Source: an uncultured Pseudomonadales bacterium (GTDB taxonomy: Bacteria; Patescibacteriota; Microgenomatia; UBA1400; PJMF01). From it: a DNA stretch of 64,000 bases. Each line of letters opens with the position of its first letter. Within the stretch, counting starts at the first letter, position 1. A program made the position numbers and the translations under genes. The stretch is from NCBI GenBank assembly GCA_964574595.1, contig CAZNOF010000003.1, positions 80,280 to 144,279 of the forward strand, read 5' to 3'. Positions 10,359 through 45,704 of the stretch are shown here, piece after piece. The notes below the pieces were generated by a model. The model was not told where the DNA came from. It did not search any database and saw only the letters and a list, made by a program, of their open reading frames with translations.

Positions 10359-11654
10359 ATGTCAAAACTAGTGAAGCGTATGCGGCAAGCATTTGCGTTG
10401 TTTTTTTCAATGTTTTTTATTGTTGCGCCTACTTTAGCTAGTTCTCAAGCATATGCAGCGGTTTGTGGAGAGCAAACAGCATCTGGTATGCCTACTTTTT
10501 GTTCTATTGGGTACCACACGGAACCCACTGTGAACATGTCTTGTCCCTTCCCATCGGCGTGTTATCAAGGTTCAAACCCCGCACCAGCGGAGTGTTCTTG
10601 GAGTGTGAATTCCAGTGGTAAACCAACCTATTGCTGGTCTTTTAAAGAATCAGATCCCAACATGCCTTTAATTAAGAATAGTCATCTGCGATTTAACTGT
10701 GTTAATCGCGGAAATATTAATGACTGTGGTGGCATTTTGGCCCAGATGGGTATGCAAACCACTGGTTTTAACTACCAAATCGTTGACCCAAATACCCTAC
10801 CTGGAAATACTCAACCTGGAGACTGTGGTCCAAACTGTCACTTTCAATGTGTCAGCATGGATTACAACCAAGCGAACATTCGCGACTTTATGATGGCTCA
10901 AGGAGTAAGACAGTGTTTACAAACAATAAGTGCTGGCGCAGGTGCAGCCGGTGGAATTGTTGCCGGGCTTGGAGCGGGATTTGCTTTAGTTCCTCTAGCG
11001 GCTGGTAATAGTCTCACAATGCTTGGAACGGTAGTTACTGCGAACGCTGCAGAACTTGGCCTTTCAGGGGCGGCTGGGAAAGCTGCACTCGATCAAGCTA
11101 AAACATGCTTAGCTACATTAAATGGTACAAACGGCCAGAGCTTGCTCGACTGGAATGGATCTGTCACCTCAGCCGACGGTACACAAACCTACTGCAACGC
11201 CAAAACCACATTAACAATGAACACAGCATTCAACGTGATTGGAAATACCACTACTCCTCCAACCACCAATCCAGATAGTCCCTTTAGTTTATGTAATCAA
11301 ATTCCAGATGCTACGCAAAAGCAAAGTTGCCAAACCTGCAACTCTTCAAACGGCGGTGATGAGACAAACATAAAAGCCATTTGGACCTCAATCGGTTGTA
11401 TTCCTACTACTAGTGAAGGAATTGTTGGTTCGTTGGTCAAACTTGGTTTAGGAATTGCTGGAACTGCAGCAGTGCTGATGATTCTCGCTGGCGGCTTTAT
11501 GTTGAGTACTTCTCAAGGTGATACCAAACGAGTTGGTGAAGCCAAAGAGCTCGTCACCTCTGCGGTAATCGGCTTACTCTTTATCATCTTCTCTGTTACT
11601 CTGTTACAATTCATTGGAGTAAAACTGTTCCATATTCCAGGATTTGGGTCGTAA
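10359..11654 (+). CDS. Cys-rich secreted protein with C-terminal T4SS-pilin-like (TrbC/VirB2-like) membrane domain
   Basis: The start was chosen at MSKLVKRM, which has a signal-peptide-like N-terminus; the ORF-track start at 10239 is less likely. The mature part has more than 25 Cys. The C-terminus IAGTAAVLMILAGGFMLSTSQGDTKRVGEAKELVTSAVIGLLFI matches the motif shared by the tandem pilin paralogs at 16.7-20.5 kb. Confidence 0.5.
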   Translation: MSKLVKRMRQAFALFFSMFFIVAPTLASSQAYAAVCGEQTASGMPTFCSIGYHTEPTVNMSCPFPSACYQGSNPAPAECSWSVNSSGKPTYCWSFKESDPNMPLIKNSHLRFNCVNRGNINDCGGILAQMGMQTTGFNYQIVDPNTLPGNTQPGDCGPNCHFQCVSMDYNQANIRDFMMAQGVRQCLQTISAGAGAAGGIVAGLGAGFALVPLAAGNSLTMLGTVVTANAAELGLSGAAGKAALDQAKTCLATLNGTNGQSLLDWNGSVTSADGTQTYCNAKTTLTMNTAFNVIGNTTTPPTTNPDSPFSLCNQIPDATQKQSCQTCNSSNGGDETNIKAIWTSIGCIPTTSEGIVGSLVKLGLGIAGTAAVLMILAGGFMLSTSQGDTKRVGEAKELVTSAVIGLLFIIFSVTLLQFIGVKLFHIPGFGS

Positions 11655-11994
11655 TATGATTCACAAATTATTAGCAGGCGGAGCACCAGCCGGACCAGAT
11701 TTTAATAAGTTTAACCCATTGGTTATTGACCAATCTCCAAACGCGAATACATTTAATAGCCCCGGTGGTGTTATTACCAAAGCTCTCGACTACGCCTTCC
11801 CCATTGCCGGCATGATTCTTTTTGTAATGATTTTATGGGGTGGTTTTGAGATGCTGTCTGGCGCTACTTCTGCCAAAGGCAAAGATGCTGGCAAACAACG
11901 AATCACTGCGGCAGTGATTGGTTTTGTCTTACTGTTCGTTTCTTACTGGATGGCTAAGCTGCTTGAGCTCATTTTTGGCATTAAGATTTTTTAA
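11644..11994 (+). CDS. T4SS-pilin-like small membrane protein (paralog)
   Basis: It carries the same motif as the other pilin paralogs: MILWGGFEMLSGATSAKGKDAGKQRITAAVIGFVLL. Its start overlaps the upstream gene; an alternative start exists at 11656. Confidence 0.5.
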   Translation: MGRNMIHKLLAGGAPAGPDFNKFNPLVIDQSPNANTFNSPGGVITKALDYAFPIAGMILFVMILWGGFEMLSGATSAKGKDAGKQRITAAVIGFVLLFVSYWMAKLLELIFGIKIF

Positions 11995-11997
11995 TCG

Positions 11998-12693
11998 TTA
12001 CTTCCCAAAATTTCGTTTTCTGTTGGAATAGTTTGCCAAGGCTTTGTCGAACTCTTTTGGAGTGAAGTCAGGCATGAGTACTGGAGTGTAAAACCATTCC
12101 GCATAGACGGCTTGCCACGGCATAAAGCCAGATGAACGCTCCTCTCCGCCGGTACGAATGATTAAATCGACATCTGGAATTCCCCGTGTATCAAGCAATT
12201 CGCTAAACTCCGCTTCTTGGATAGTTGCCAATTTTTGTGGAGGAATATTGTGAATGGCACGCAAAATTTCGTCTCGGCCGCCATAATTAAGCGCAAAAGT
12301 AACCGTAATCTTGTTATTATCTTTGGAAATTTCTTGCCAGTGCTTAGCACCTTTTTGAATATCTTCGTCAAACTTAGACATATCACCAATAGTTCTTAAA
12401 CGAACGCCCTTTTTATGGAGCGCTTCGCTTTGTTTCTGAAAAGCTTGGCGAAATAAATTCATCAGACCTGTCACTTCTGCTTCATCACGTTTCCAGTTTT
12501 CAGTACTAAATGCCCACAACGTTAAGTACATAATGTTCAGTTCAATGCAGCGATCAACCAATGGTTCAATCACTTTCTCCGTCACATAGGCATGACCTTG
12601 CAATGCAGCCAGCTTATTTTGCTTAGCCCACCTGCGATTGCCATCCATAATAATTCCCACATGAGCTGGGAGATGTTCTATATTATTCGTCAT
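11998..12693 (-). CDS. uppS: Isoprenyl transferase (undecaprenyl-diphosphate synthase)
   Basis: The N-terminus HVGIIMDGNRRWA and the C-terminal RTGGEERSSGFMPWQ motif are UppS hallmarks. Confidence 0.9.
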   Translation of the reverse strand: MTNNIEHLPAHVGIIMDGNRRWAKQNKLAALQGHAYVTEKVIEPLVDRCIELNIMYLTLWAFSTENWKRDEAEVTGLMNLFRQAFQKQSEALHKKGVRLRTIGDMSKFDEDIQKGAKHWQEISKDNNKITVTFALNYGGRDEILRAIHNIPPQKLATIQEAEFSELLDTRGIPDVDLIIRTGGEERSSGFMPWQAVYAEWFYTPVLMPDFTPKEFDKALANYSNRKRNFGK

Positions 12694-13540
12694 AAATCAC
12701 GGTTCCCTTCACTGATTGATTCATTAGAATTTGATATAAACGATCTGGTGCTAAACCAGAAATAATCCGTGATTGGATGCCGAGCTTGGCTAATTTTAGA
12801 GACTCTTCTACTTTCAAACCCATGCCTCCCGTGACATCAAAACCTTTGGTTTCAGTCAGAGCATGCTGTAAGTCTGGCCAATTTTGCGAACTAATATGTG
12901 GCACTACATTTTTATTGACATCATAAAAACCTTCAACTTCTGCCACATGGATGATTTGTTTGACTTGCCACTTTCGTTTGACTAACTCCTGACCTAAAAA
13001 TGCCAAAACTTCTTCTGTTGACCACACCGTACACCCTTTCACTACATCTACTAAAACATCACCATAGGTAATCGGTAATAACTGTTTTTTGAGATACTCT
13101 TCACAGACATCGCCACAAAATGTTTGGGCAATTCGGTTGGAACTGAGCACCATATTACTGGCTGCCAGCGTGACCGCCGGCTGACCCAATTTCAAAAACT
13201 GCTCGACCACAATTCTATTTAGTTGGGCTGCCACATCTTGAACCACAGCCATGCCGTAAACACTTTCACTGTCTTTGAACCCATCCATGGTTTGATATTT
13301 CGCAGCGGGTGGATGGGCAAAACTGCCAGAACCATGACCTACTAAGAATAATTCATCTGGCAGAGCGGTTTTGGCTTTGACGATTTCTGCTACCAGACGC
13401 CTTAACAACTCAGCGCGCAAAGCCATTGGTTTTTCTTTATCAGTGATAATGGAGCCACCTAATTTAATCAAGGTGATGGAAGGCGTAGACATATCGTAGT
13501 AGTAATAGTCGGAAAAAAGAGCGGAAATCACGCACACCAA
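12683..13540 (-). CDS. Amino-acid kinase family protein, most consistent with isopentenyl phosphate kinase (IPK/FomA-like)
   Basis: The LIKLGGSIITDK glycine loop sits at the N-terminus of the kinase fold. The likely true start is the ATG at 13492 (MSTPSITLIKLGGS). It is adjacent to and overlaps uppS, giving an isoprenoid context. Confidence 0.45.
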   Translation of the reverse strand: MVCVISALFSDYYYYDMSTPSITLIKLGGSIITDKEKPMALRAELLRRLVAEIVKAKTALPDELFLVGHGSGSFAHPPAAKYQTMDGFKDSESVYGMAVVQDVAAQLNRIVVEQFLKLGQPAVTLAASNMVLSSNRIAQTFCGDVCEEYLKKQLLPITYGDVLVDVVKGCTVWSTEEVLAFLGQELVKRKWQVKQIIHVAEVEGFYDVNKNVVPHISSQNWPDLQHALTETKGFDVTGGMGLKVEESLKLAKLGIQSRIISGLAPDRLYQILMNQSVKGTVIYDE

Positions 13541-13894: not shown

Positions 13895-14019
13895 CAGACT
13901 AGATTGTACCAGGTGATATAATATGTATCAAATTACTCATTACTTGCTTTACATTGCTGAATCAGATCTAAAGTGATGAGTAATTCATCTTTAATAAGTT
14001 AAGAAAGGTTGTGAATACG

Positions 14020-14778
14020 ATGAAGAAGTTCTGGATCATTTTCGTCCCAGTCCGAGAAAGTGGTGGATTTGGAGGGTGGGTACTTCTTGTTATCCTGATC
14101 ATTATTGGGATTGTAGGTATCGTGAATCAGAGTGGCTCTGGTCGAGGTCCCGCTCGTCAAGTAATTGTTACAGCAACTCCGACCATTTATGTTACTTTAG
14201 ACCCACAGGCTCAGGCAATTGAGGCAACAAAGACATTTATCAGTTCATACTCAGTCGTACAGACAATTACATCAAGAAGGCCACCTGAATGTATTGAAAC
14301 TTCTAAAATGAAGGGAATACTAACTCAGGTCGCATTTAACGCAACTGATAACTATTTTTCATTGGTCACTGAAGACGGTAACAAAACATATCTTCTCAGC
14401 TGGTTTTTCAACTCCAGAACTGGGCTCAACCAAGAGTATCATTGTGGCAATGATGTTCAAGAATTCAATGGCAAAATAACATACGTGCGTTACGGATACT
14501 TCGATCAATCAGGCACAGCAAGCATCCTTCACAAAGTAGTAAGAACCGACAATCAGGGTATCGCAACTTATGATTTCTCTAGCATGACCAACGACAACAG
14601 TCCTGTGACATTGAGGTCAGATGATCAAAGCAAATGGTATAGTGCATCTAACTACCAAGTTACTCAGACAATAAACTGGCTAGGAACCACAAATGGGATT
14701 GCATACGTTTCACCAGAAAAACGATTCCTCGTATACCAAACAACCAATGGGGAAATTAATATTGCCTATCAGCAATAA
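14020..14778 (+). CDS. Membrane-anchored extracytoplasmic protein, paralog A (unknown function)
   Basis: The ATG at 14020 (MKKFWIIF...) follows the RBS AAGAAAGG. The N-terminal TM is similar to the 15805 gene. An extended -10 GTGATATAAT lies at 13914-13922. Confidence 0.45.
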   Translation: MKKFWIIFVPVRESGGFGGWVLLVILIIIGIVGIVNQSGSGRGPARQVIVTATPTIYVTLDPQAQAIEATKTFISSYSVVQTITSRRPPECIETSKMKGILTQVAFNATDNYFSLVTEDGNKTYLLSWFFNSRTGLNQEYHCGNDVQEFNGKITYVRYGYFDQSGTASILHKVVRTDNQGIATYDFSSMTNDNSPVTLRSDDQSKWYSASNYQVTQTINWLGTTNGIAYVSPEKRFLVYQTTNGEINIAYQQ

Positions 14779-14851: not shown

Positions 14852-15049
14852 TTACTTGAGGAAAATTCGCACGATCAATGTTGTAATCCCCGATAAAATC
14901 AGTAATGTCTGCCAAGGATACTTACCTATTAAGGAAGTAATTGGATCAATTTGCTTTGGTAGCCAACGGACGGTATTTAGCGGTGCCTGCAAATTAGCTT
15001 GATGTTGCAACTCATTTAAAAATTGCTGTTGTGATTTGGATTTGGTCAT
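14852..15049 (-). CDS. Putative membrane-anchored anti-sigma factor (small single-TM protein translationally coupled to the ECF sigma gene)
   Basis: It has a 4-nt ATGA overlap with the upstream sigma gene. The C-terminal TM is LLILSGITTLIVRIFL. Confidence 0.4.
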   Translation of the reverse strand: MTKSKSQQQFLNELQHQANLQAPLNTVRWLPKQIDPITSLIGKYPWQTLLILSGITTLIVRIFLK

Positions 15050-15573
15050 GTGCTTTCTACTCCATACAACTCTCTAAACTCATCTCTAGCTCTGAATAAA
15101 ATAGACTCCACTGACTTGACGGAACGACCGGTTTCTTTGGCAATTTGGGCAACTTTCTTCTTATCTAAGTACTTCATTAGCAGAATTTCTTTATATTCTT
15201 GATTCATATGCTGCAGAACTGAAATGACGTGTTGGGAGATTTCTTCTGGATGCTGAACTGGTTCGGTGGTTAAAAACTCAGACAGAGGCAGGGCTAAAAT
15301 AAACTTTTTGGCATACCGCTTCCGGTAATAATCGGCAACTTCATGGTGTGCCACATGCATCATCCAAGTCCAAATACTTGATTCACCACGGAAAAGTGGC
15401 AGCGATTTCAAACAACTTAAGAAAATATCCTGGGTGACTTCTTCTGCATCTGAGGCTGTCACCACTTTTTTGAGAACATGCCGATACATCTTTTGATGAA
15501 ACAGCTCATACCACTCCCGCACCGCTCTAGGAGAAGCCTGCTTTAACTGCTGGAGCAAAAGCTCTTCATTCAT
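15046..15573 (-). CDS. ECF-type RNA polymerase sigma-70 family factor
   Basis: Sigma region 2 reads DIFLSCLKSLPLFRGESSIWTWMMHVAHHEVADYYRKR. Region 4 has an HTH (KKKVAQIAKETGRSVKSVESILFRAR). Confidence 0.85.
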   Translation of the reverse strand: MNEELLLQQLKQASPRAVREWYELFHQKMYRHVLKKVVTASDAEEVTQDIFLSCLKSLPLFRGESSIWTWMMHVAHHEVADYYRKRYAKKFILALPLSEFLTTEPVQHPEEISQHVISVLQHMNQEYKEILLMKYLDKKKVAQIAKETGRSVKSVESILFRARDEFRELYGVEST

Positions 15574-15804: not shown

Positions 15805-16653
15805 ATGCGTAAGTTTCTGGTAATTCTCATTCCGATCGAAGCTGGACCGCAAGATCCGGGCTGCCTATTAAGAACAATCTTCGGAATCGTGATTTGGGGA
15901 GCATTCTTTGTAATACTGTTTTCAGGGATGTTCAGTGGAAATCAAAATAACAGAAATTCTCAACTGGACAACACCCATCTATCTGTCCCAACATCTATCC
16001 CAACATTAGTTCCATTTGGAGCTCGGATCATTTCAAATCAGGTAAGGACGATAGTTGGAGTACCTGATATCGAAGTGACTGATTTCCAAGGACTACAATA
16101 CAATCTGAAAGAATCAGTAGCCTCAGAAGTTTCTTGGTCTCCAAATGGATCAAAGATATTGTATCGCGGAGAAGAAAACTCAATTCGTGTCGTGAATATA
16201 GATGGAACAGGAGACCATCAAGTTGTACATTCTACGCCAGGAGATATTCTGAGTTTTACCTGGAATGATGACGAACACGTACTCTTCAAGCATTGCCCTT
16301 TCGATCAGCAGCACCAGGTATTTAATTGTGAATTGCAGTACTCAAATAGCGTAAGCTTAGATGGTAGAAGCGTTGCCCCAGACGGTTTTACTAGCAGCGC
16401 TGTAAACTTTAACGACAACAGGGTCTCTTTCAAAAACCATACTCCCCTAAATAACTTCGGAAGAGTAGCTTTTGGACCATATGGCTTTGATTCTGTAGAA
16501 TGTCTATATTGTCACTTCTTGGCTTTTGTTACTTGGAACGAATCTCCTGGACAAACAGGAAATCTGTATGTCGCAAGGGATGTTTATATCAAAGATCCCA
16601 ATCCTAGTACAACTAGCACTGGAACGTATCTATCAATTAACGGAATAAACTAG
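15805..16653 (+). CDS. Membrane-anchored protein with TolB/PD40-like beta-propeller repeats, paralog B of the 14020 gene at its N-terminus
   Basis: SWSPNGSKILYRGEENSIRVVNIDGTGDHQVV is PD40-like. It has an RBS AAGTTAAGAGAGGTT and an extended -10 TGTGATATAAT at 15685-15695. A terminator hairpin follows at 16673-16705. Confidence 0.45.
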   Translation: MRKFLVILIPIEAGPQDPGCLLRTIFGIVIWGAFFVILFSGMFSGNQNNRNSQLDNTHLSVPTSIPTLVPFGARIISNQVRTIVGVPDIEVTDFQGLQYNLKESVASEVSWSPNGSKILYRGEENSIRVVNIDGTGDHQVVHSTPGDILSFTWNDDEHVLFKHCPFDQQHQVFNCELQYSNSVSLDGRSVAPDGFTSSAVNFNDNRVSFKNHTPLNNFGRVAFGPYGFDSVECLYCHFLAFVTWNESPGQTGNLYVARDVYIKDPNPSTTSTGTYLSINGIN

Positions 16654-16757: not shown

Positions 16758-17174
16758 ATGAAGAAATCTGGGATTAGTTTTATTATTATCTCGATTACAG
16801 CAATTTTTCTTGCCCTTTCTTTTTTTGTACCTCAAACAGTATTGGCAGCTAACACAAATTGTGACCCAACCTCAGCAGGCTTGAAGATTGGAGACTGTTT
16901 ACAACTTAGCGAGGGTCAACCAGTTAGTAGTGTTTATGACAAACCAGCTGTTCTCGTTAACCTCCTCACCAGTAATATCTTCATTGCTGGCGGAATTATT
17001 CTCTTAGTGATGATCATTTACGCTGGCTTTCAATTCATTACTGGCGGAGCTAAAGGCATGGAACAGGCCAAAAGTGTGCTTGGTACAGCTTTAATGGGCT
17101 TTATTATTATGTTTATGGCTTACTGGATCTTGAGAATTATCAAAATTATAACTGGAGCAAACATCCTTTTTTAG
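16758..17174 (+). CDS. T4SS-pilin-like (TrbC/VirB2-like) small membrane protein, tandem paralog 1
   Basis: A signal-like N-terminal TM is followed by two TM helices with the family motif AGGIILLVMIIYAGFQFITGGAKGMEQAKSVLGTALMGFII. Confidence 0.6.
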   Translation: MKKSGISFIIISITAIFLALSFFVPQTVLAANTNCDPTSAGLKIGDCLQLSEGQPVSSVYDKPAVLVNLLTSNIFIAGGIILLVMIIYAGFQFITGGAKGMEQAKSVLGTALMGFIIMFMAYWILRIIKIITGANILF

Positions 17175-17192
17175 ATAGTGTAAAATAGTCAT

Positions 17193-17582
17193 ATGATTTT
17201 AACTTTACTAGCAGACAGCGTATTTGGAACAATTAATCCACCGGCCGGTGTAAAAGAATTTGATGCCTCGCCAGGAGCAAATGGTCTTGGAATCATCGTC
17301 TTCTTCTCCAACTTAATCAAAATCGGTACCGTTATTGCCGGAATTTTAGTCTTCGTCAACATTTTGATGGCAGGCTTTACCTACGTGAGTGCTGCTGGAG
17401 ATTCAGGCACGCCAGATAAAGTTAAAGATCAAATTCTGCACAGCGTGATTGGTTTAGCCATTATCGTCTTGTCTTACTTAATCATTGCCTTAATTAGTTT
17501 CGTCCTCTTCAAAGATCCAGGATATATCTTAAATCCAACCATTACCGGGCCAGGAACATCAACTGCGCCAACAGGACCATAA
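17193..17582 (+). CDS. T4SS-pilin-like small membrane protein, tandem paralog 2
   Basis: Motif: MAGFTYVSAAGDSGTPDKVKDQILHSVIGLAIIVLSY. Confidence 0.6.
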   Translation: MILTLLADSVFGTINPPAGVKEFDASPGANGLGIIVFFSNLIKIGTVIAGILVFVNILMAGFTYVSAAGDSGTPDKVKDQILHSVIGLAIIVLSYLIIALISFVLFKDPGYILNPTITGPGTSTAPTGP

Positions 17583-17965
17583 TGACATCAAGATTAATTG
17601 CTGCAGAAACCAAACTCGGCACCTTTGAACCACCATCTACCATTTTAAAATCTTCAGATTTAACATCTGGAGCAGGTGTAACCACCAAGTTAGAAGCCGT
17701 TCTCTCTGAATTCCTAGGTATCGTCACCATCGTGGCCAGTATTGCTTTGATTTTCTACTTTATTATCGGCACTTTAAACTGGATTACCTCAAATGGTGAT
17801 TCCGGTAAAATTCAAAAAGCTCGTGAAGCCATGATTCAATCCGTATCTGGAATGGTCCTCGTTGTCGCTGCCTACGGCTTGATTGGCTTAATTGGCAACT
17901 TCTTAGGTCTTCACATTCTTAACCCAGGCACTGCTCTCTTAAATATCGTGAATGGAACGCCATGA
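17582..17965 (+). CDS. T4SS-pilin-like small membrane protein, tandem paralog 3
   Basis: It is start/stop-coupled to the previous gene (ATGA overlap). Motif: IIGTLNWITSNGDSGKIQKAREAMIQSVSGMVLV. Confidence 0.6.
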   Translation: MTSRLIAAETKLGTFEPPSTILKSSDLTSGAGVTTKLEAVLSEFLGIVTIVASIALIFYFIIGTLNWITSNGDSGKIQKAREAMIQSVSGMVLVVAAYGLIGLIGNFLGLHILNPGTALLNIVNGTP

Positions 17966-18399
17966 AAAAACAGTTTTTAAAAACTCTTACCGTTACAACT
18001 TCTTTTATTGGAAGTTCTGTCATTTTGCCAGCTCAAATCTTTGCAGCCGGTATCACCAACCCAGCCATTGGCTCATTGGGTGATAGTTCAACCAAAGCAG
18101 AAAGTGGTAGTACCTTTACTGGCTACTTCGTCACGATTTGGAGAGCCTTAATTTTTGTGGGCGTTTTAGCCTTACTCTTCAACTTACTCAATGGTGGGCT
18201 TGACTGGATTTTAGCTGGTGGTGAAGCCGCCAAAATTCAAAAAGGCCGTGACAAAATGGTCCAATCAGTTATTGGTATGGTCATTTTAGCCGGATCATTC
18301 GTAATTATTTCTTACGTCAGTAGTCTCTTATTTAACTTTGACTTGCTGAACTTAACTGTTCCTACTGTAGGGAGCGCAGGCCCAACCGGTACTCCATAA
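17962..18399 (+). CDS. T4SS-pilin-like small membrane protein, tandem paralog 4
   Basis: It has an ATGA overlap with paralog 3. Motif: LNGGLDWILAGGEAAKIQKGRDKMVQSVIGMVIL. Confidence 0.6.
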   Translation: MKKQFLKTLTVTTSFIGSSVILPAQIFAAGITNPAIGSLGDSSTKAESGSTFTGYFVTIWRALIFVGVLALLFNLLNGGLDWILAGGEAAKIQKGRDKMVQSVIGMVILAGSFVIISYVSSLLFNFDLLNLTVPTVGSAGPTGTP

Positions 18400-18406
18400 C
18401 ATATCT

Positions 18407-18796
18407 ATGAAACACACTCTCTTAGCTCAAACGCTGAATTTTCGACAAGAAGCCACTACACAGCAACTTCCTAATGCCGATGGCAACTTAGGATCTGCTT
18501 TAAGTACCGTGATTACTGCTGTGATGGCAATTGGTGTTTTAGCCGCCTTCATCTACATCGTGATGGGTGCTTTTGAGTGGATCACATCTGGTGGTGAAAA
18601 AGGCAAAGTTGAGTCAGCCAGAAATAAGATCACTGGGGCAATTATTGGCTTAATCGTCTTAGCATCTGTCTTTGTAATCATTCTATTAGTTCAAAACTTC
18701 TTGGGCGTGCAAGTGTTTACACTTGGTGGCGCAGCTACAACAACTACCAATGGTGGTGGCGGCGGTGGTTCCAGAATGGTACCAACCCAGTTCTAA
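18407..18796 (+). CDS. T4SS-pilin-like small membrane protein, tandem paralog 5
   Basis: Motif: VMGAFEWITSGGEKGKVESARNKITGAIIGLIVL. It has a Gly-rich C-terminus. Confidence 0.6.
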   Translation: MKHTLLAQTLNFRQEATTQQLPNADGNLGSALSTVITAVMAIGVLAAFIYIVMGAFEWITSGGEKGKVESARNKITGAIIGLIVLASVFVIILLVQNFLGVQVFTLGGAATTTTNGGGGGGSRMVPTQF

Positions 18797-18843
18797 GAAT
18801 TTTTATTAATAAAGAATGAATAAATAGTAGATCTCGAGTGGGC

Positions 18844-18871
18844 TTGACAGTTGCTAGAGGACTACTATAAT
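18844..18871 (+). promoter_or_regulatory. Near-consensus sigma70 promoter for pilin paralog 6
   Basis: TTGACA at 18844-18849 is followed by a 16-nt spacer and TATAAT at 18866-18871. The RBS AAGGAG and the GTG at 18902 lie downstream. Confidence 0.6.
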
Positions 18872-24014: not shown

Positions 24015-24020
24015 CTGAAA

Positions 24021-38700: not shown

Positions 38701-40184
38701 GCGCCGCATTACTAGGAAGCGCCGCCGCAAACGCTGTTTTGCCAGGTGTGGGCTTCTTCATTCCTAAATCAGCAAAGAAAACAATTGGTAAAGCCGTAGC
38801 CATAGGTGGCGCTGTTGTAGGTGGCGGTGCTGTTTTAGCTCTTGGCCAGTTGGTCAGTCAATTTGGCGCTGTTGGTGGGAGTGCCATCTTTTTTGGAGCC
38901 GTGGGTGGAGTCTTTGGTGGAGTCTTCGGAGCCATTGGCGGTGCCATTGCAGGAGCTGGTTTTGGTGCAGCCTTGCAGAGTAGTGGAATTGGACTCAGTA
39001 ATTTAACTGGTGGGGCTGGCGGTGCCGTTGCTAGTACCGCAGCAACTCCTGCCGCAACTGCGGCTGCTCCATCTTTAGCAGCCAAGGCCGCTGGGGCAAT
39101 CAGATCAGTAGTTTCAAGTCCAGCCGGTGTAGCAGTCACTGGATTTGTGGGTGTGAGTACAGTGGGTTCAGTCCTCGTGTACACCCAACTCACGACCGCC
39201 TTTTTACCACCGATTGTTCAAACCACGACTGAGTATGCCTCTGTCACTAAGACAGCTACTCCCTCAAAAGCAGCTCAGCCGACAACGGTGAATTACACAG
39301 TGAACATTTCCGCAAATCCAACCTATAAAATTGAAATTACTGACATAACAGACACAATTGTAGCAATTTCTAAAGATCCTAATAACCATCCAGCAACTCC
39401 ACCACCAGTAGATTTAAGTAAATATAAGACCACTCTTGATTCTGCTGGAACTGCTTCTACAAATATCACCTACTCAGTTCCTTTTGATAGTAGCTACGTG
39501 GATAGTTTAGTCACCAACACCTTTACGATTAAGTACACTGTTACAGACGCAGGCGTTACCTCAGATCAAGTTACATCTGCTACCGCAACCACTTGCTTTG
39601 GTGATTGTCCTGCTCCAAAGGTGGGCTGTTGGCCAGCTTCTGGATTGATTTGGGAAGGTCCATATGAATCGCCACAATCAACTCATAATCATCCCAGTAA
39701 GGGATCATCTGTTTGGGTTTTCCTTGATGCTGTCGATATCTCAAACGGCACGCCACAGCCAGTACCCATCTATACACCTTTTGATGGCACCGCATCCTTT
39801 TATACATACAATCAGACAACTGGCGAAGGGGCTGGCGGCAATTACGGAAATCGTGTTGCGGTGAGAACCAGTACAGGAGCTGTCCTTTTATTTGCTCACT
39901 TTGAACGATTCATGCCAACATTCCAGCCAGGACAGTCCTATCCCGTTCATGCGGGAGACCAACTTGGGTTTATGGGCACAACGGGAAATGCTGGACCGGG
40001 CGTCTACGGAAAGCACTTGCACTATGAGTACCGTCCCGCCAAAACTGGAGCTCAGGGTGGCGCACCTTCTATCAGTAATCTCTCCTTGTTGCTGCCAGAG
40101 CCAGTTCAGTACACGTCAAAGTGGCAAGTTACGCGTAAACAACGTGTTGTGACAACATGTAATGGGACAGCAGCTACACCATAA
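35790..40184 (+). CDS. Giant (1464 aa) multi-domain protein: N-terminal soluble region with four to five tandem ~42-aa helical repeats, a Gly/Ala-rich multi-TM (GxxxG zipper) block, and a C-terminal M23 (LytM-type) metallopeptidase domain
   Basis: The repeats lie at about 37341-37908 (NVDAFLTDTFAAVKV..., SIDDLLKQLYAEMQ..., RIELILNEIYASV..., NIDEIIKGLSKEL). The hydrophobic Gly-zipper block lies at about 38690-39190 (GAVGGVFGGVFGAIGGAIAGAGFGAAL). The M23 motifs are HNHPSKGSSVWVFLDAVD, GTTGNAGPGVYGKHLHYEY and HxH, at about 39640-40050. Confidence 0.7.
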   Translation: MSAIITEHVMSLRINQQLRNPEGIARLLERIKDGLSVRSPDYISANTIFYLDKDFTIEGTAPFQADQPIIINPNAKKSGEIADKGGAPQSLTLFDVFLLLNQAYAELYDPDFNKKYVSNQPNGRQLAFFEHLKETKDNYLATKAHEIESGNVTIPNKEELLTEIVESLAEAIEALFAEGQGAEEKKEDNRTEEIPEWLKAALEEPLRDKKHWKLIAEIIKPKEDKKGFLEIAIDRYRNIQSQNRADFPGIQLKTKEELISIVALRKFLNEWAEKILEEDTHDPFRHFRFTSEADKNLIFFPVVDKGTAVNDLELVQDLDVQAVRSFKEWLLLPLEEYEDKEDGEHVNGTEHEDGGGDEGDDKTEKKKADLPKTDQEKEELIKNLNEHQAFVRQETLRLQTIATNFVLSFNNLPTSLGNDLLGTDKHIFFEYFEREINSEIMEMLSRNGDALNDENRRAQITRQFLFRLMANPKFQAHLALLREKYIDVQIDKQNPDIPAEERAELKKQLLEDLIQHPKADVNQLLTEVYSAMKVSALAGLTETQEKQIREELVKKLNSNPRLNVDAFLTDTFAAVKVASGVGGLSAGQQVELTTRLKAGLAKNPKASIDDLLKQLYAEMQASASPLTDAQQAELRKQFQGRFSTNPLDRIELILNEIYASVPNLSDAQKNTLRQQLTAGLSRNAAVNIDEIIKGLSKELPASDPNKAVFNTGALTKDHFLELLKYYDLTPEQQNALFEGVDLLMFMRVSPERISRFTSAQLIEIFGVDISQLPKNHGDEFVNILTSYFMLRRQWFEKEYNSASVSQAQDIIYNDRALTDEELKLLLEQKAMIKKSGLGAKHFVRASVLTKAQVANFKSSGHAEAEETEVAANLLQENRKRLYIELAKQFAEQDEEYRKYLMNQVGVHFNDANFLNLIETSMDMSPFEYQSGVVTNEDQQVIHSAAQAEQNYAEGKKAGFSNTALSAVADEGAALLGSAAANAVLPGVGFFIPKSAKKTIGKAVAIGGAVVGGGAVLALGQLVSQFGAVGGSAIFFGAVGGVFGGVFGAIGGAIAGAGFGAALQSSGIGLSNLTGGAGGAVASTAATPAATAAAPSLAAKAAGAIRSVVSSPAGVAVTGFVGVSTVGSVLVYTQLTTAFLPPIVQTTTEYASVTKTATPSKAAQPTTVNYTVNISANPTYKIEITDITDTIVAISKDPNNHPATPPPVDLSKYKTTLDSAGTASTNITYSVPFDSSYVDSLVTNTFTIKYTVTDAGVTSDQVTSATATTCFGDCPAPKVGCWPASGLIWEGPYESPQSTHNHPSKGSSVWVFLDAVDISNGTPQPVPIYTPFDGTASFYTYNQTTGEGAGGNYGNRVAVRTSTGAVLLFAHFERFMPTFQPGQSYPVHAGDQLGFMGTTGNAGPGVYGKHLHYEYRPAKTGAQGGAPSISNLSLLLPEPVQYTSKWQVTRKQRVVTTCNGTAATP

Positions 40185-40210
40185 GTGTTACACTTAAAAA
40201 GAGAAACGAT

Positions 40211-41191
40211 ATGCAAGCGTTAAAGAGAAACTGGAAACTCATTTTTGGCATCACCATGGTTGTGCTATTTGTGGTGGGTACAATTTTAAAACTCATTACG
40301 CCAGCAACGGCTCCAGTCTTAAACGCCGTTTCCACGGCGCAAGCTCCAACCATCAAAAAACAAACAAGTTTCACTGGCGCAGTTATTAACTTACCTAAAA
40401 CGGCACCGACTGTTGCGACAACCCAGTCAATTTATTACGTGACAAACGCGCCCGTCTCATTAACCATTCTAGGAGCTAAACTCAATCTTCAATCAGCTGA
40501 TCAAGGCGTGACTTGGTATTCTGATAGTGGAGAAACACTGAGCCAGGATCCTTACTCGAATCGAATTGGCTACTCAAACTTAGGTACCGAGGAGGCAACA
40601 GATTCTGCAAAATTGCCACCTGTAAATGTGGAAACAGCTACATCCGTTGCTACTGCATATCTGGCCAACAAACTCCAAATTACTACATTGGTGGCAGACG
40701 CCCCAAACATCACATTAAAACAAACTGGTTATGAGGATGACTACTACGATGTGGGTAAAGCCGACATTGCTGTCATCCCGTTTGTCTATCAAGTTGGTGG
40801 CCAACCCGTCTTTACTGATTCAGATCTCTTTCCTCAAATGACCGTTCAAGTAAACAGCTTAGGGAAAATTTTAAATTTCACCATGGCTCCCAATCTTATA
40901 ACCGCAGTTACACAAGAAGTGAAAGTGAAAACCCTGCCGTTTGAGCAGATAAAGAATCAAATTTTGGCAAATAAAGTTGGCGTGTTGCAAATTAGCAGTG
41001 AATCACCAGACGGTTTTACGATACAAAAACTCAAGCAACTTGATATTACGTCTGCAACAGTTGAATATCGATTAAATACGGCCAGTAGTCAGGTTCTCCC
41101 CTACTATCGACTTTTCAGCACTGCAACGCTCTTATCTGGCACTGTTTCCCAACTCCAACTTATCACCCCAGCCGTGGTAACAACTCCATAA
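40211..41191 (+). CDS. Membrane-anchored extracytoplasmic protein (326 aa), unknown function
   Basis: A single N-terminal TM (LIFGITMVVLFVVGTIL) is followed by a Thr/Val-rich beta-like domain. Its size and topology are compatible with a VirB8/TcpC-like assembly factor, but this is speculative. Confidence 0.4.
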   Translation: MQALKRNWKLIFGITMVVLFVVGTILKLITPATAPVLNAVSTAQAPTIKKQTSFTGAVINLPKTAPTVATTQSIYYVTNAPVSLTILGAKLNLQSADQGVTWYSDSGETLSQDPYSNRIGYSNLGTEEATDSAKLPPVNVETATSVATAYLANKLQITTLVADAPNITLKQTGYEDDYYDVGKADIAVIPFVYQVGGQPVFTDSDLFPQMTVQVNSLGKILNFTMAPNLITAVTQEVKVKTLPFEQIKNQILANKVGVLQISSESPDGFTIQKLKQLDITSATVEYRLNTASSQVLPYYRLFSTATLLSGTVSQLQLITPAVVTTP

Positions 41192-41212
41192 TTTTGATAG
41201 GATATAGGTTGC

Positions 41213-42571
41213 ATGAAAGATCACGCCTTGCCCCAAGACGTTACCGGATATAAGTTTCATATCATCGGTAACATGACGCTTAAACAGTTTGCAGAAGTTG
41301 CAGCTGGCGTTGGCGTAGGTTTTTTAATTTACTTCACCAATTTACCGGATCTTATCAAGTGGCCGCTTATTTTGACCTTTGCTGGAGTGGGTGCGTTAGC
41401 TGCTTTTGTGCCATTTGAGGAACGACCTTTAGATCACTGGATCATGTCTCTTTTCAAAGCGCTTTACAGACCAACCCAATTTTATTGGAAAAGGATGTCA
41501 AAGATTCCAGAATCTTTGCTATATGAATCAAAAACAGAATTACATACGTTGGTAAAAGAAGTTGATTTAACTCCAGCCAGACGACAGCGCGTAAAAGAGT
41601 ACCTCCACTCCGTCGTTCCAACAGAAGAGAATGACTCGATTCAGGATTACACAAACCAAAGATTAAACGAAGTGATGACTGTCTTCGATCAAGTGGTGTA
41701 CCAGCCACAGCCAGAACTTCAAATTCAACCTGACCAACTAGCTCAACCAGAATATGCACCAATGCAGCCATCATTTGCGACTGAACCAGCAATCGCGGAA
41801 ATTCCTCAACCTGAACCAATGGCTGCTCAAATGACCGAGCCAATTGCTCAACCCATGCCAGTAGCTCAAGCTGCCGAACCAGCTCAAGCTCAGGCAGCCC
41901 CAAATTGGCCAGACGCTCAACCCACCTCAATACCAGCCAATGAACAAGCAAATTCTGTTTCATTTAAGCAGACACAAAAACAAGTTGATCCAAATGCCAA
42001 CGTGCCGTTATCTATTTCACAAGGGTTTGTCTCTGGGGTAGAAATTAAAACTAAGCAAAGTAACTCGACATCAGTGAATGACATTGCCACTGCGGCAAAT
42101 TTATTAAACCAGGGTGTCTCTGTGCCACAAGCTCAAGGAATTTCAGTAGCCAGAACGCAACTAGATGATTTTGGACCAAGAACATCACCACAAAATGAGA
42201 ATCAAGTGGGTGACACCTACATTACCAGTCAAAATTTAAATACCAACCAAGGTCCACAGGCCACACAGATGGCGGTTCAAGATAAGACGCTCCCCTTCCC
42301 TGCCAAGCCAACTCAACCAAATAAAATTGTTGGCATGTCTATAGATAGTAATAATGTGCCGCTAAGCAACGTGATTATTGAAATCTTAACGCCAGAAGGT
42401 ATTCCAGCCAGAGCTGTTAAGACGAATATTTTAGGTCAATTTTTTATCACTACCCCATTAGGAAATGGAACATATACAATATCTGCAGAAAAAGCAGGCT
42501 ATACTTTTCCACCCCAGAGCCTAGAATTAACAGGGCAGGTACTAGATCCTATTGAAGTGAGAAGCCAATAA
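41213..42571 (+). CDS. PrgI-family (VirB3-like) T4SS membrane protein with Q/P-rich linker and C-terminal carboxypeptidase-regulatory-like beta domain
   Basis: The N-terminus, KQFAEVAAGVGVGFLIYF...LILTFAGVGALAAFVPFEERPLDHWIMSLFKALYRP, resembles PrgI/VirB3 (two TM). The C-terminus, IIEILTPEGIPARAVKTNILGQFFITTPLGNGTYTISAEKAGY, is CarbopepD_reg-like. Confidence 0.5.
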   Translation: MKDHALPQDVTGYKFHIIGNMTLKQFAEVAAGVGVGFLIYFTNLPDLIKWPLILTFAGVGALAAFVPFEERPLDHWIMSLFKALYRPTQFYWKRMSKIPESLLYESKTELHTLVKEVDLTPARRQRVKEYLHSVVPTEENDSIQDYTNQRLNEVMTVFDQVVYQPQPELQIQPDQLAQPEYAPMQPSFATEPAIAEIPQPEPMAAQMTEPIAQPMPVAQAAEPAQAQAAPNWPDAQPTSIPANEQANSVSFKQTQKQVDPNANVPLSISQGFVSGVEIKTKQSNSTSVNDIATAANLLNQGVSVPQAQGISVARTQLDDFGPRTSPQNENQVGDTYITSQNLNTNQGPQATQMAVQDKTLPFPAKPTQPNKIVGMSIDSNNVPLSNVIIEILTPEGIPARAVKTNILGQFFITTPLGNGTYTISAEKAGYTFPPQSLELTGQVLDPIEVRSQ

Positions 42572-42573
42572 CC

Positions 42574-43542
42574 ATGCAAAATCAAAACGCCATCACCTCC
42601 ACCACTCAGCAATATATTGAAATTTACGATATTACCAATGATTTAGTCATTCAAAAGTCTGGTGGAGTTTCACTCGTTTTAAGTGTTACCGCCATGAACT
42701 TTGGTTTATTAGCAGAGGAAGAGCAAGACGCCATTATTTATGGGTACGCTGGTTTACTCAACTCACTCAATTATCCAATTCAAATCGTGATTCGATCTCA
42801 GACAAAAGACGTGACGAGTTATTTAAATAGTTTGAAGTTAAAAGAAGACGAGACAATCAACCGTGTCCGTAAGGATCAAATTCGAAAATATCGCGAGTTT
42901 GTGGCCGATCTCGTTCAAGAACGAAATGTTTTGGATAAAAAGTTTTATGTGGTCATCCCTGCCACAGCGCTTGAGTTGGGCTTAGTTACCACCCAAAGTG
43001 TTTTGCCCGGTGTGAAAAGTCCAGACATCTCTTCGTTTGACAGAAGTGTGATTATTGAGAGAGCAACCCAATTACTCGAGCCAAAACGGGACCACTTGAT
43101 GGCTCAATTTTCACGAATTGGCTTGTCTTCTAAGCAATTAAAAACTCAAGAACTGATTCAGTTGTTCTACACGATTTATAACCCAGAAGCATCTGAAGGT
43201 CAGAAGATGACGGATAGTAGTAGTTACACGACAGCATTAGTCGAAGGCAATTTAGAGGAAGAGGTATTTGGTGCCACCCGTTCTCAAACTCCAGACAACC
43301 TGAAACATCCGGCACCAGTCGTTCAGGAAGAAACTGTCACACAACCTATTCAGCCAGCTCCTCAGATGGAACAACCAGCTCAAGTTGCCACAGAAGTTTC
43401 AGTTGATGAATTGCCAATGGCTCCCGCCATTCAACAAACGCCAGAAGAACAAGTTGCGGCTCAATCGGCAGCCATCGCTACAGACGCTCCCATTATCAAT
43501 ACTCAGGACGCACCACTTCCGCCACCAGTGGAGATTGTTTAA
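42574..43542 (+). CDS. Hypothetical protein between the PrgI-like and VirB4 genes; possible detached VirB4 N-terminal domain
   Basis: The 322-aa ORF has no NTP motif and a Q/P-rich tail. Its position matches where the VirB4 N-terminal domain would be encoded. Confidence 0.4.
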   Translation: MQNQNAITSTTQQYIEIYDITNDLVIQKSGGVSLVLSVTAMNFGLLAEEEQDAIIYGYAGLLNSLNYPIQIVIRSQTKDVTSYLNSLKLKEDETINRVRKDQIRKYREFVADLVQERNVLDKKFYVVIPATALELGLVTTQSVLPGVKSPDISSFDRSVIIERATQLLEPKRDHLMAQFSRIGLSSKQLKTQELIQLFYTIYNPEASEGQKMTDSSSYTTALVEGNLEEEVFGATRSQTPDNLKHPAPVVQEETVTQPIQPAPQMEQPAQVATEVSVDELPMAPAIQQTPEEQVAAQSAAIATDAPIINTQDAPLPPPVEIV

Positions 43543-43553
43543 AATAGGAACTA

Positions 43554-45704
43554 ATGCCCTCTTTTTCTTTACCAAACCTTCCATTTTTACCTAAGAAACC
43601 TGTTGCCGCAGAAGACGAAGCACAGCAAATGAAGGATCATAACGAGAAAATTCTCAAAGAGTTTTCTCAGGGCCTAGTCACTATTCAGGATATTATCGCT
43701 CCTGAAGCTATTGAGGTGGACTTTACCTTTCAAAAAATTAACTCTACCTACACCAGAACATTATTTGTAGCCGGCTACCCGAGAACCGTCCCATCAAACT
43801 GGTTATCTCCGTTGATTAACTTTCCACATCAGCTCGATATTGCCATGTACATCTATCCTGTAGACGTTCGTGAAGTGCTTGATAACTTAAAGCGCAAGAT
43901 TACAGAAATGGAAGCTGAAATTACCTCTGACTTGAGAAATGGTCGAATTAGTAACATTGATACCGAAGTAAAACTTGAAGACGCCAGAATTATTCGTGAG
44001 CAGTTAGCAAAAGGAGCTGAGCGTTTCTATCAGTTCGGTTTGTACATCACTATTCAAGCCAAAGACAAAGATGAGTTGGAACGAGTCACAAAGAGTGTCC
44101 AGTCCACATTGGGTTCATTGTTAATTGTTTCCAAAAAAGCCACATTACAAATGGATGAAGGTTTTAAAACGACTTTGCCATCTGGCAGCGATAAATTAAT
44201 GATCACGAGAAACATGGATACCACGTCCCTAGCGACCACATTTCCATTCACTTCTTCAGAACTGACCATGGAAACCGGTATTGTGTACGGAATTAATGAG
44301 CATAATGATTCGTTGGTGGTCTTCGACCGATTTAAAATGGAAAACTTTAATATGGTTATCTTCGCCAAATCTGGTGCAGGAAAATCATTCACCGTTAAAT
44401 TGGAAATTTTGCGCCAGTTAATGTTCGATACAGAAGTCTTAGTTCTCGACCCAGAACACGAGTACGAAGAGCTGACCAAGTCGGTTGGCGGCGAGTATAT
44501 TAACTTCACTTTTAATTCTCAGGCAAAGATTAATCCTTTTGACTTATCAAACGTTTATGAAGAAGGCGAAAATGAACTCGGTCAAAAGATTATTCACTTA
44601 CACGCTCTCTTAAAAGTCATGCTTGGTGAGATGACGCCAACTCAAGACGCTATTCTCGATAGAACTTTGGTGGCAGCATATAAAGCCAAAGGCATTACCC
44701 CTGATCCAGCTACTCAAACCAATGAACCACCTTTAATGGAAGATCTCTACAAAGCCTTAATTGGTATGGAAAATGAAGATGCTGCCAATATTGCGGCTCG
44801 CTTAGAGAAGTTTATTACTGGATCTTTCAGAGGTATTTTTGACCAGAAATCGAACATTAACATTAAAAACCAATTGACCGTCTTCTCTGTCCGTGAAATG
44901 GAAGAAGAAATGCGACCAATTGCCATGTTTGTGATTCTGGACTTTATGTGGACCAGAATTCGTAAAAAATTGAAAAAGCGATTACTCGTTGTTGATGAAG
45001 CCTGGTACTTCATGAGATATCCAGATTCAGCCTTCTTCTTACAGTCAATTGCCAAGCGTGCTCGTAAATACTATCTCGCCGTTACCACTGTCACCCAGGA
45101 CGTAGAAGACTTTATGGCGAACGACTTTGGGAAAGCAATTGTTACAAACGCTTCTATTAAATTCTTAATGAAGCAGTCCTCTGCCTCAGTGCCCATTTTG
45201 GCAGAAACATTCTACTTATCTGAAGGTGAGAAGCAGTTGCTCGTCTCCTCAGATGTAGGAGAAGGTATCTTCTTTGCCGGACAAAATCACGTGGCTTTGC
45301 GGGTCGTCGCCAGTCCAGATGAATACGGTTTGATTACCACCAACCCAGAAGAAATCTTAAAACAACGGAACAGCGCCCAGATTGCTGATCAAGGTGGCAG
45401 TCCCATTACCCAATCAGTTAGAGCTGGATTAACTGCCGGTATTCCATTACAAGGCAATATGGGTGGAGGCGCACCAATGCGACCACCTCAATTCCAAAGT
45501 CAGGCACAAAATTTACCGCTGGCTCCTCAGCCAGGGAATCCACTAAATACTGTTCAAACGAGAAGAGTCCAAATTCCAACGACTCAAGCAGCCGCCCCAG
45601 CACCACAACCGATCCAAACGGCTACAGCGAACGGTTCGGGTATTCCTGAACCAAAACAGTACGCTGGTACATTTACCATTGACGATTATCAACCGCCCAA
45701 GTAA
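43554..45704 (+). CDS. VirB4/TrbE/PrgJ-family T4SS ATPase
   Basis: Walker A, VIFAKSGAGKSFTV, lies at about 44361-44390. Walker B, RLLVVDEAWYFM, lies at about 44985-45010. A C-terminal Q/P-rich tail is present. Confidence 0.85.
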   Translation: MPSFSLPNLPFLPKKPVAAEDEAQQMKDHNEKILKEFSQGLVTIQDIIAPEAIEVDFTFQKINSTYTRTLFVAGYPRTVPSNWLSPLINFPHQLDIAMYIYPVDVREVLDNLKRKITEMEAEITSDLRNGRISNIDTEVKLEDARIIREQLAKGAERFYQFGLYITIQAKDKDELERVTKSVQSTLGSLLIVSKKATLQMDEGFKTTLPSGSDKLMITRNMDTTSLATTFPFTSSELTMETGIVYGINEHNDSLVVFDRFKMENFNMVIFAKSGAGKSFTVKLEILRQLMFDTEVLVLDPEHEYEELTKSVGGEYINFTFNSQAKINPFDLSNVYEEGENELGQKIIHLHALLKVMLGEMTPTQDAILDRTLVAAYKAKGITPDPATQTNEPPLMEDLYKALIGMENEDAANIAARLEKFITGSFRGIFDQKSNINIKNQLTVFSVREMEEEMRPIAMFVILDFMWTRIRKKLKKRLLVVDEAWYFMRYPDSAFFLQSIAKRARKYYLAVTTVTQDVEDFMANDFGKAIVTNASIKFLMKQSSASVPILAETFYLSEGEKQLLVSSDVGEGIFFAGQNHVALRVVASPDEYGLITTNPEEILKQRNSAQIADQGGSPITQSVRAGLTAGIPLQGNMGGGAPMRPPQFQSQAQNLPLAPQPGNPLNTVQTRRVQIPTTQAAAPAPQPIQTATANGSGIPEPKQYAGTFTIDDYQPPK

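Follow-up and report, generated by a model that had tools for sequence, protein, structure and literature searches.

The 64,000-nt stretch of contig CAZNOF010000003.1 analyzed here (hereafter, the window) very probably carries a vertically inherited chromosomal type IV secretion system (T4SS) typical of the ultra-small Patescibacteria (CPR bacteria), here of the class Microgenomatia (Pacebacteria/Woesebacteria group). This system derives from MPF-FATA machinery and is proposed to act as a contact or conduit organelle. A preliminary description of this DNA had proposed a domesticated, non-conjugative T4SS resembling Gram-positive (MPF-FATA) systems rather than an integrative and conjugative element (ICE), and this proposal is upheld: the system is fixed beside dnaA in relatives, mobility genes and repeats are absent, G+C content is uniform, and the VirB4 ATPase falls in a CD1110/MPF-FATA-type family. 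The same description had treated the region as a single 35-kb T4SS locus, which does not hold, as the T4SS genes are not contiguous. Open reading frames (ORFs) and family searches place them in three groups on the + strand, split by unrelated genes and a fast-evolving block:

10359-11994, + strand: group 1, two pilin genes
16758-26655, + strand: group 2, eight pilin genes, followed by those of a large exported, wall-associated protein and of the VirB6-like protein
33952-45704, + strand: group 3, the core operon, which reaches to the dnaA promoter region and encodes a 613-aa protein, the M23 hydrolase, a bitopic protein resembling YycI, the PrgI/VirB3- and TrsD-like proteins and VirB4

Between these groups lie uppS, an isopentenyl phosphate kinase gene, small membrane proteins, an extracytoplasmic function (ECF) sigma factor and a 297-aa protein, as well as a 6.8-kb minus-strand block encoding three large proteins that have neither membrane nor signal segments. 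All ORFs of the locus are intact, and G+C content does not vary along it. The proteins of the window were searched using an ORF listing and Pfam, NCBIfam and PDB sequence/profile comparisons; statements on the absence of a coupling protein, relaxase or recombinase cover the 64 kb of the window.

A scan with one genome per species yielded 134 VirB4 relatives, and the loci of the best 80 (L001-L080) were fetched. All of these best 80 were from metagenome-assembled genomes of Patescibacteria (named Pacebacteria, Woesebacteria or Microgenomates), with VirB4 identities of 65-81%. The gene order M23, bitopic protein, PrgI, TrsD, VirB4, dnaA, dnaN, (rnpA), yidC, khpB, RNase H, DUF4012, L25 was found in nearly all of the 80 loci that reach far enough, including one from a record labeled a complete genome of 853 kb, and three of the 80 deviate by an inversion of dnaA-dnaN only. 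Median identities in the same genomes were 75% for VirB4, 54% for YidC, 51% for DnaA and 40% for DnaN, making VirB4 the most conserved protein of the neighborhood. Overall, the conserved order beside dnaA and the conservation of VirB4 suggest a system that is vertically inherited under strong purifying selection and is not an ICE. The closest VirB4 proteins from outside the Patescibacteria showed 35-37% identity (top value in PLSDB, 36.6%).

The region upstream of the core operon was compared among five relatives reached via the VirB6-like protein (L081 and L083-L086). All five carry the same upstream module, i.e., a divergent ECF sigma factor gene, 7-8 pilin genes, a gene for an exported protein of 900-1240 aa, a minus-strand gene for a protein of approx. 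300 aa and the VirB6-like gene; the latter is followed, again in all five, by two to four large unannotated genes, a gene for a protein of approx. 615 aa and the M23 gene.

The end of the locus had been described as lying about 150 bp from dnaA, with DnaA boxes, and the stop codon of virB4 is located 147 bp before the dnaA start. The features of this neighborhood are:

45705-45851, no strand: virB4-dnaA spacer, with two DnaA boxes of one mismatch each (45758-45766 and 45770-45778)
45852-47558, + strand: dnaA (Pfam Bac_DnaA, 217.8 bits), given as context outside the T4SS
47559-47869, no strand: dnaA-dnaN spacer, AT-rich in one stretch, with one perfect DnaA box (47588-47596) and several boxes close to the consensus

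In 67 related loci, the density of DnaA boxes was 10.4/kb in the virB4-dnaA spacer and 8.7/kb in the dnaA-dnaN spacer as compared to a background of 0.48/kb (an approx. 20-fold enrichment). Cumulative GC skew showed a broad minimum at 47-51 kb, its 1-kb resolution being too noisy for a finer placement of the origin. Given the DnaA boxes in both spacers and the GC-skew minimum, placing the T4SS beside oriC is reasonable, with the dnaA-dnaN spacer as the probable unwinding region. In the three deviating loci (L078, L079 and L080), the dnaA-dnaN pair is inverted relative to both virB4 and rnpA-yidC, which suggests a local inversion at the origin. The T4SS structural genes and dnaA are all encoded on the + strand (10239-47558) and would thus be transcribed head-on to replication if the dnaA-dnaN spacer is the origin, a tentative reading given the breadth of the GC-skew minimum. 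Most of the interspersed non-T4SS genes (uppS, the kinase, the sigma factor, the 297-aa gene and the fast-evolving island) are encoded on the minus strand, the + strand exceptions being two window-specific inserts (14011-14778 and 15805-16653).

Family searches found no coupling-protein, relaxase, integrase, recombinase or transposase family in any ORF of the window. The three absences on which the preliminary description had rested its argument were thereby reproduced: there is no VirD4-type ATPase (between 10 and 46 kb, no genuine P-loop protein other than VirB4 is encoded, and no type IV coupling protein [T4CP] family was matched), no MOB relaxase family among the ORFs, and neither a recombinase nor att-like terminal repeats, as the only repeats in the window are short imperfect chance matches. 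Scans of the window for tRNAs and Rfam families were empty. Relatives of VirB4 from outside the Patescibacteria were taken from PLSDB (L087, Pontibacillus; L088, Embleya; L089, Priestia megaterium), and the Embleya plasmid, with a VirB4 that is 35% identical, served as a positive control; a T4CP gene and a replication-relaxation gene were found directly downstream of its virB4.

The core operon beyond its first gene consists of the following genes:

35790-40184, + strand: 1464-aa protein with a C-terminal M23 peptidase domain (PF01551, E 2e-9, residues 1321-1417)
40211-41191, + strand: bitopic membrane protein of 326 aa in the slot of VirB8/PrgL-type genes; its ectodomain has two domains and resembles YycI
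41213-42571, + strand: PrgI/VirB3-like membrane protein (PF12666, 31.6 bits; gathering score, 27), with a CarboxypepD_reg-like domain at its C-terminus
42574-43542, + strand: TrsD-like protein, 322 aa (NCBIfam VirB4_plasma, E 4.5e-11; TrsD, E 2.5e-5; CD1110 profile positions 1-118)
43554-45704, + strand: VirB4 ATPase (Walker A AKSGAGKS at residue 271; Walker B LLVVDEAW)

The VirB4 ATPase recognized in the preliminary description has intact Walker motifs and scored 376 bits against the NCBIfam family "VirB4-like conjugal transfer ATPase, CD1110 family" (curated cut-off, 325); it also matched the Pfam families P-loop_TraG (88 bits), AAA_10, DUF87 and CagE_TrbE_VirB. As its match covers positions 177-735 of the CD1110 profile and that of the TrsD-like protein covers positions 1-118, VirB4 appears to be split into an N-domain protein and an ATPase. 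The TrsD-like protein, which also matches the N-terminus of Mycoplasma ICE VirB4, is encoded in 72-73 of the 80 loci. The PrgI-like gene, likewise anticipated and now placed in PF12666 by a score over the gathering threshold, is present in 69/80 loci, two genes from virB4.

For the 1464-aa protein, M23 matches were also obtained in the PDB (at 1e-5). Its N-terminal part of approx. 960 aa has no transmembrane (TM) segment, TM segments are located at 973-1130, and conservation is limited to the C-terminal ~450 aa (52 loci), the N-terminal part being variable; by analogy, a role as VirB1/PrgK-type cell-wall hydrolase would fit this protein. The 326-aa protein was considered as a VirB8/PrgL/TcpC equivalent and rejected, as the best structural match of its model is not the NTF2-like VirB8 fold and resembles YycI. 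This model was built on an alignment of 7 sequences because word-based homolog searches gave only 3 and 7 proteins.

Three genes located between the pilin array and the island complete the envelope portion of the locus:

20511-24014, + strand: 1167-aa exported protein with an N-terminal TM/signal segment
24021-24914, - strand: 297-aa protein with no predicted TM segment, between the 1167-aa and VirB6-like genes
25000-26655, + strand: VirB6-like polytopic membrane protein, 551 aa

A search of the PDB by sequence and profile gave no meaningful match for the 551-aa protein. Its structure model, on the other hand, best matches DotA and TrwI/VirB6, and this model indicates that the previously unannotated 551-aa family has a VirB6-like fold; the polytopic VirB6-like protein claimed in the preliminary description is thus present.

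Two dedicated cell-wall hydrolase domains, one M23 and one lysozyme-like, had been claimed for this locus, of which the M23 domain stands (E 2e-9) and the lysozyme-like domain found weak support. The latter would be located in the 1167-aa protein, whose orthologs occupy the equivalent place in relatives (65-66% identity). Its match to Pfam Glucosaminidase was under threshold (E 1.2e-3) and recurred in two of six orthologs, while a sequence/profile search of the PDB was without match. In the ortholog alignment, E1072 is invariant within the C-terminal region at approx. 1050-1160, where a GH73/lysozyme-like domain is possible. The adjacent 297-aa protein, for which neither a family match nor a meaningful PDB match by sequence or profile was found, has a counterpart in 5/5 relatives (a minus-strand gene of 288-305 aa at the equivalent place, 70-82% identity); whether it belongs to the T4SS is uncertain.

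The pilin genes and the signals around them are:

10239-11654, + strand: pilin 1 (PF18895, E 1.2e-4 at residues 394-459); the start given in the preliminary description, 10359, is Met41
11644-11994, + strand: pilin 2, 116 aa (PF18895, 39.4 bits, over the gathering score)
16758-17174, 17193-17582, 17582-17965, 17962-18399 and 18407-18796, + strand: pilins 3-7, closely packed (PF18895)
18844-18871, + strand: sigma-70 promoter of perfect consensus (TTGACA-16-TATAAT) before pilin 8
18902-19297, + strand: pilin 8 (PF18895, 39.0 bits)
19316-19343, + strand: intrinsic terminator behind pilin 8 (a stem of 12 bp, 9 of them G-C, and then a run of T)
19392-19994, + strand: pilin 9 (PF18895, 36.8 bits)
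20005-20466, + strand: pilin 10 (PF18895, 32.7 bits)

All ten ORFs initially read as TrbC/VirB2-like pilin paralogs match Pfam PF18895 T4SS_pilin (E 6.6e-10 to 3.8e-3), six of them exceeding the gathering score, and the ten cross-match by BLASTP with 20-72% identity. Their alignment shows the VirB2 hairpin pattern, i.e., a TM helix, a basic loop of the form GG(E/D)xGKxExAK and a second TM helix, so that at the level of sequence they are confirmed as VirB2-like pilins; eight of the ten also weakly match the Mycoplasma ICE "pilin-like" family NF045849. Pilin 1 has a Sec-type leader starting at Met41, followed by a Cys-rich N-terminal ectodomain of approx. 340 aa and the C-terminal pilin hairpin (TM pair at 404-461, with BLASTP matches to the other pilins), and may represent a tip or adhesin subunit. 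The orthologs of pilins 3-7 in L081 and L083 are 59-81% identical. Pilins 2, 4, 5 and 7 have no hydrophobic signal-peptide core, only a short leader of the M..LLA type; this short leader was also seen in the pilin 5 and 7 orthologs of all relatives checked, while the signal peptide is complete in the pilin 4 orthologs of relatives at greater distance.

Pilin 8 is the likely major pilin, the nine others being minor or variant subunits, because it has its own conserved promoter and terminator and is the best-conserved pilin. Its promoter is kept before the orthologous pilin in L081, L083, L084 and L086, the hairpin and T run are kept in five genomes (i.e., also around the ortholog in four others), and its identity to the L081 ortholog (85%) is the top value of the array. 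With a promoter and a terminator of its own, pilin 8 is apparently monocistronic. No terminator as strong as that of pilin 8 interrupts the 11.7-kb core operon, nor is there one between virB4 and dnaA.

Divergent from the pilin array lies a candidate regulatory pair:

14852-15049, - strand: 65-aa single-pass membrane ORF overlapping the stop of the sigma gene, a candidate anti-sigma factor
15046-15573, - strand: ECF-type sigma-70 factor (Pfam Sigma70_r2/r4_2; TIGR02937, 74.6 bits)

The ECF sigma gene adjoins the array in 5/5 relatives, and its product possibly regulates the array. A conserved 62-aa ortholog of the small membrane ORF is encoded in L081, and genes for proteins of 59-67 aa are found at the equivalent site in L083 and L086; the two genes may therefore form a sigma/anti-sigma pair that controls the array. 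In the window, the sigma factor is flanked by the two window-specific inserts, both of which encode additional membrane proteins. A kinship of the 147-, 255- and 282-aa membrane proteins, guessed from their N-termini, was discarded, as BLASTP gave no match among them.

Between the VirB6-like gene and the M23 gene lie four genes, three of which form the minus-strand island:

26955-30248, - strand: 1097-aa protein, no TM/signal segment
30265-32262, - strand: 665-aa protein, no TM/signal segment
32403-33734, - strand: 443-aa protein, no TM/signal segment
33952-35793, + strand: 613-aa protein, first gene of the core operon, no predicted TM segment; overlaps the ORF of the M23 gene by 4 nt

None of these four proteins matched Pfam, NCBIfam or the PDB. 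A search of 1.84 billion representative proteins gave only 19 relatives of the 1097-aa protein; its identity in the two closest genomes is 32-41% and limited to the first ~420 residues. For the 665- and 443-aa proteins, no match was detected in these two genomes, where genes of similar size occupy the equivalent places and the genes flanking the island are 64-91% identical. Among relatives at greater distance, the genes of the island can be grouped loosely into families by position, and in L085 a DnaJ-domain protein is encoded inside the block. Homologs of the 613-aa protein are encoded directly before the M23 gene in seven of the 80 loci as well as in L083, L084 and L086 (23-61% identity). 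The earlier statement that about 40% of the locus has no recognizable homology hence stands with respect to Pfam, NCBIfam and the PDB; it does not stand with respect to related genomes, where positional homologs exist. Overall, a block of approx. 12 kb (26955-38700, comprising the 1097-, 665-, 443- and 613-aa proteins and the N-terminus of the M23 protein) keeps its position and diverges far faster than its neighbors. The 1097-, 665- and 443-aa proteins may be accessory factors or substrates. That the block encodes T4SS substrates (effectors delivered into a host bacterium) or a recruiting platform that replaces VirD4 is a rather doubtful proposition at present.

Among the other genes of the window, the isopentenyl phosphate kinase is of archaeal type (NF040647, 187 bits) and located beside uppS (11998-13540); as HMG-CoA reductase is encoded close by in a relative (L085, 1-340), these genes point to a modified mevalonate pathway in the lineage. 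At the left end of the window (705-3600), an ATP-dependent DNA ligase of archaeal/eukaryotic type and a Fic-domain protein with a helix-turn-helix are encoded.

The system has close counterparts in recent literature. In Southlakia epibionticum, Wang et al. 2023 (PMC10633639) reported an apparent T4SS (SEML1_0006-0019) as essential for epibiotic growth, the pilin series being essential too; they described it as Gram-positive conjugative-like, with no recognizable coupling or relaxase proteins. The cluster of strain ML1 (Saccharimonadia) thus resembles that of the window in being chromosomal, with Gram-positive conjugative-like subunits and a VirB2-like pilin array and without coupling protein or relaxase. 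It also includes peptidase and lysozyme homologues, and its low locus-tag numbers suggest that it too is located near the start of the chromosome record. Conversely, it belongs to a different class and has six pilins rather than the ten of the Microgenomatia window, its hydrolases are encoded downstream of virB4 (in the window the M23 gene is upstream and dnaA directly follows virB4), and its essentiality was shown, while that of the window system is inferred.

Quinonero-Coronel et al. 2025 (PMC12102498), in a survey of 3,035 genomes, recovered the VirB4 proteins of Patescibacteria as a monophyletic clade within MPF-FATA, accompanied by TrsD, PrgI, VirB6 and M23-domain hydrolases; pilin arrays of 2-11 genes numbered 441 and were particularly frequent in Microgenomatia. 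Few relaxases were seen in this survey, and a T4CP was rarely close to virB4. In Microgenomatia and Paceibacteria, the vicinity of virB4 was rich in dnaA, dnaN and rnpA, for which a gene-dosage explanation was offered (PMC12102498). The window agrees with this clade in its MPF-FATA-related VirB4, in TrsD and PrgI by virB4, in its PF18895 array and in the proximity of dnaA, dnaN and rnpA. It differs in that VirB6 was scarce and VirB3 seldom linked to virB4 in the Microgenomatia of the survey, whereas here VirB6 was recognized by fold and PrgI was found near virB4 in most loci; these differences are of detection, not of kind. A 2025 review (PMC12857230) regards the Patescibacteria T4SS as a new subtype, possibly one that assembles a pilus acting as a conduit towards the host, and as the first T4SS reported to be needed for the survival of its own bacterium. 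The kind of system, the missing relaxase and coupling protein, and the proximity to dnaA are therefore already published (PMC10633639, PMC12102498, PMC12857230); the interpretation offered in the preliminary description was right, although its novelty is not upheld. The following appear to go beyond these papers: the assignment of a VirB6-like fold to the 551-aa family, a YycI-like protein encoded between M23 and PrgI, a candidate for the major pilin, the conservation of the ECF sigma factor with its small membrane ORF, the fast-evolving island and the pilin-bearing relatives in Bacillota.

Compared to the monoderm MPF-FATA systems (pCF10 Prg/Pcf, Clostridioides CD1110 and Mycoplasma ICE Mbov_0395/0397), the window shares the VirB4 family, PrgI, the absence of outer-membrane components and a large cell-wall hydrolase that is anchored in the membrane and has an M23/LytM-type domain. 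These conjugative systems, however, have a relaxase, a coupling protein and mobility, all of which the window lacks, its system being fixed by dnaA. The top VirB4 match outside the Patescibacteria in PLSDB belongs to Pontibacillus sp. ALD_SL1 (NZ_CP062975.1, a non-mobilizable replicon of 898 kb), in which a set of pilin, polytopic VirB6-like, PrgI-like, TrsD-like, VirB4 and M23 genes was found. The two pilin-like genes show 33-45% identity over the hairpin, and the TrsD-like gene shows 31% (E 9e-27). Up to 15 kb on either side of this cluster, neither a relaxase nor a T4CP was found. Unlike the window, the Pontibacillus cluster is compact (approx. 10 kb), has two pilins, carries its M23 gene downstream of virB4 and is located beside flagellar genes rather than dnaA. 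A decayed copy of a cluster of this type is present in Priestia megaterium (pFDU301A). The VirB2-like pilins of these Bacillota clusters indicate that pilins are not unique to the Patescibacteria version of the machine. Among diderm bacteria, the T4SS Bordetella Ptl, Brucella VirB and Helicobacter ComB have VirB2-type pilins and need no coupling protein or relaxase. They differ from the window in having a VirB7/9/10 outer-membrane core and another class of VirB4, and in being neither origin-adjacent nor essential for growth.

By analogy with known systems, we propose that the pilins are inserted in the membrane as two-helix hairpins and that the VirB6-like, PrgI-like and bitopic proteins would form a membrane platform. 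VirB4, with its N-domain supplied in trans by the TrsD-like protein, would dock on this platform and spend ATP on extracting pilins and polymerizing them on VirB6, while the M23 domain, and possibly the GH73-like domain as well, would open the peptidoglycan locally. Pilin 8 would provide the main filament subunit, with the other nine as minor or variant ones. The resulting structure would serve as a contact or conduit organelle in epibiotic host association, for exchange of proteins or small molecules rather than for conjugation; this reading is based on the gene content and on the essentiality of the T4SS genes in Southlakia.

Several points weigh against this proposal. Every functional step is assigned by analogy, and the VirB2-type pilin assignment is based on sequence. 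No VirB8- or VirB5-like component was recognized in the locus, where the VirB8 slot is taken by the YycI-like protein, and the lysozyme-like domain is sub-significant. The proposal gives no place to the approx. 12 kb of fast-evolving genes, with their proteins free of TM segments. Finally, the genome beyond the 64 kb could encode a relaxase or a VirD4-like coupling protein; VirD4-like genes are far from virB4 in many Patescibacteria genomes (PMC12102498).

Three alternative explanations were weighed. An import machine like Helicobacter ComB or archaeal Ced, which would take up DNA or other host-derived molecules without relaxase or T4CP, appears unlikely. In its favor, ComB-type systems likewise have neither of these two functions, VirB4 weakly matches CedB (E 1.3e-15), and Patescibacteria do not synthesize nucleotides and amino acids; the 2025 review has also speculated that host molecules are taken up via the pilus (PMC12857230). 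The CedB match, however, is far below the match to conjugative VirB4, nothing resembling ComEC, ComEA or a DNA-binding receptor was found in the window, and deletion of comEC in Southlakia ended competence and not viability, which indicates that the requirement for the T4SS is not explained by ComEC-dependent DNA uptake.

A purely adhesive filament for host attachment, built from the ten pilins and VirB4 without any translocation, seems quite unlikely. While the large pilin repertoire, the fusion of one pilin domain to a 340-aa Cys-rich ectodomain, the strong expression signals of one pilin and the lack of a coupling protein would suit an adhesin, in Saccharibacteria, adhesion is already a function of type IV pili (PMC12102498, PMC10633639), and the position-conserved large proteins without signal peptides would be left unexplained. 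Lastly, an ICE or its decaying remnant, with relaxase, coupling protein and integrase outside the window or diverged past recognition, is highly improbable and largely refuted: although the VirB4 family is named for conjugative elements (CD1110), the nearest VirB4s outside the Patescibacteria are plasmid-borne and approx. 12 kb of the locus has no recognizable family, the gene order beside dnaA is alike in almost all 80 species-level relatives, VirB4 conservation exceeds that of DnaA with all ORFs intact, recombinase, relaxase, T4CP, tRNA target and terminal repeats are missing from a window of uniform G+C, and the housekeeping genes uppS and isopentenyl phosphate kinase are interleaved.

Overall, the window represents a clean and complete Microgenomatia example of the Patescibacteria T4SS that confirms the published picture and is no new kind of system. 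It names a VirB6-equivalent family for a class in which VirB6 was reported scarce, and offers a probable major pilin among the ten, a candidate regulator pair and possible substrates without signal peptides. The Bacillota relatives bear on whether the pilins came together with the MPF-FATA core. If the fast-evolving block does encode substrates or a recruiting platform, it would, with the ECF sigma/anti-sigma pair and the separate major pilin, provide the first concrete candidates for the cargo and control of the Patescibacteria T4SS.

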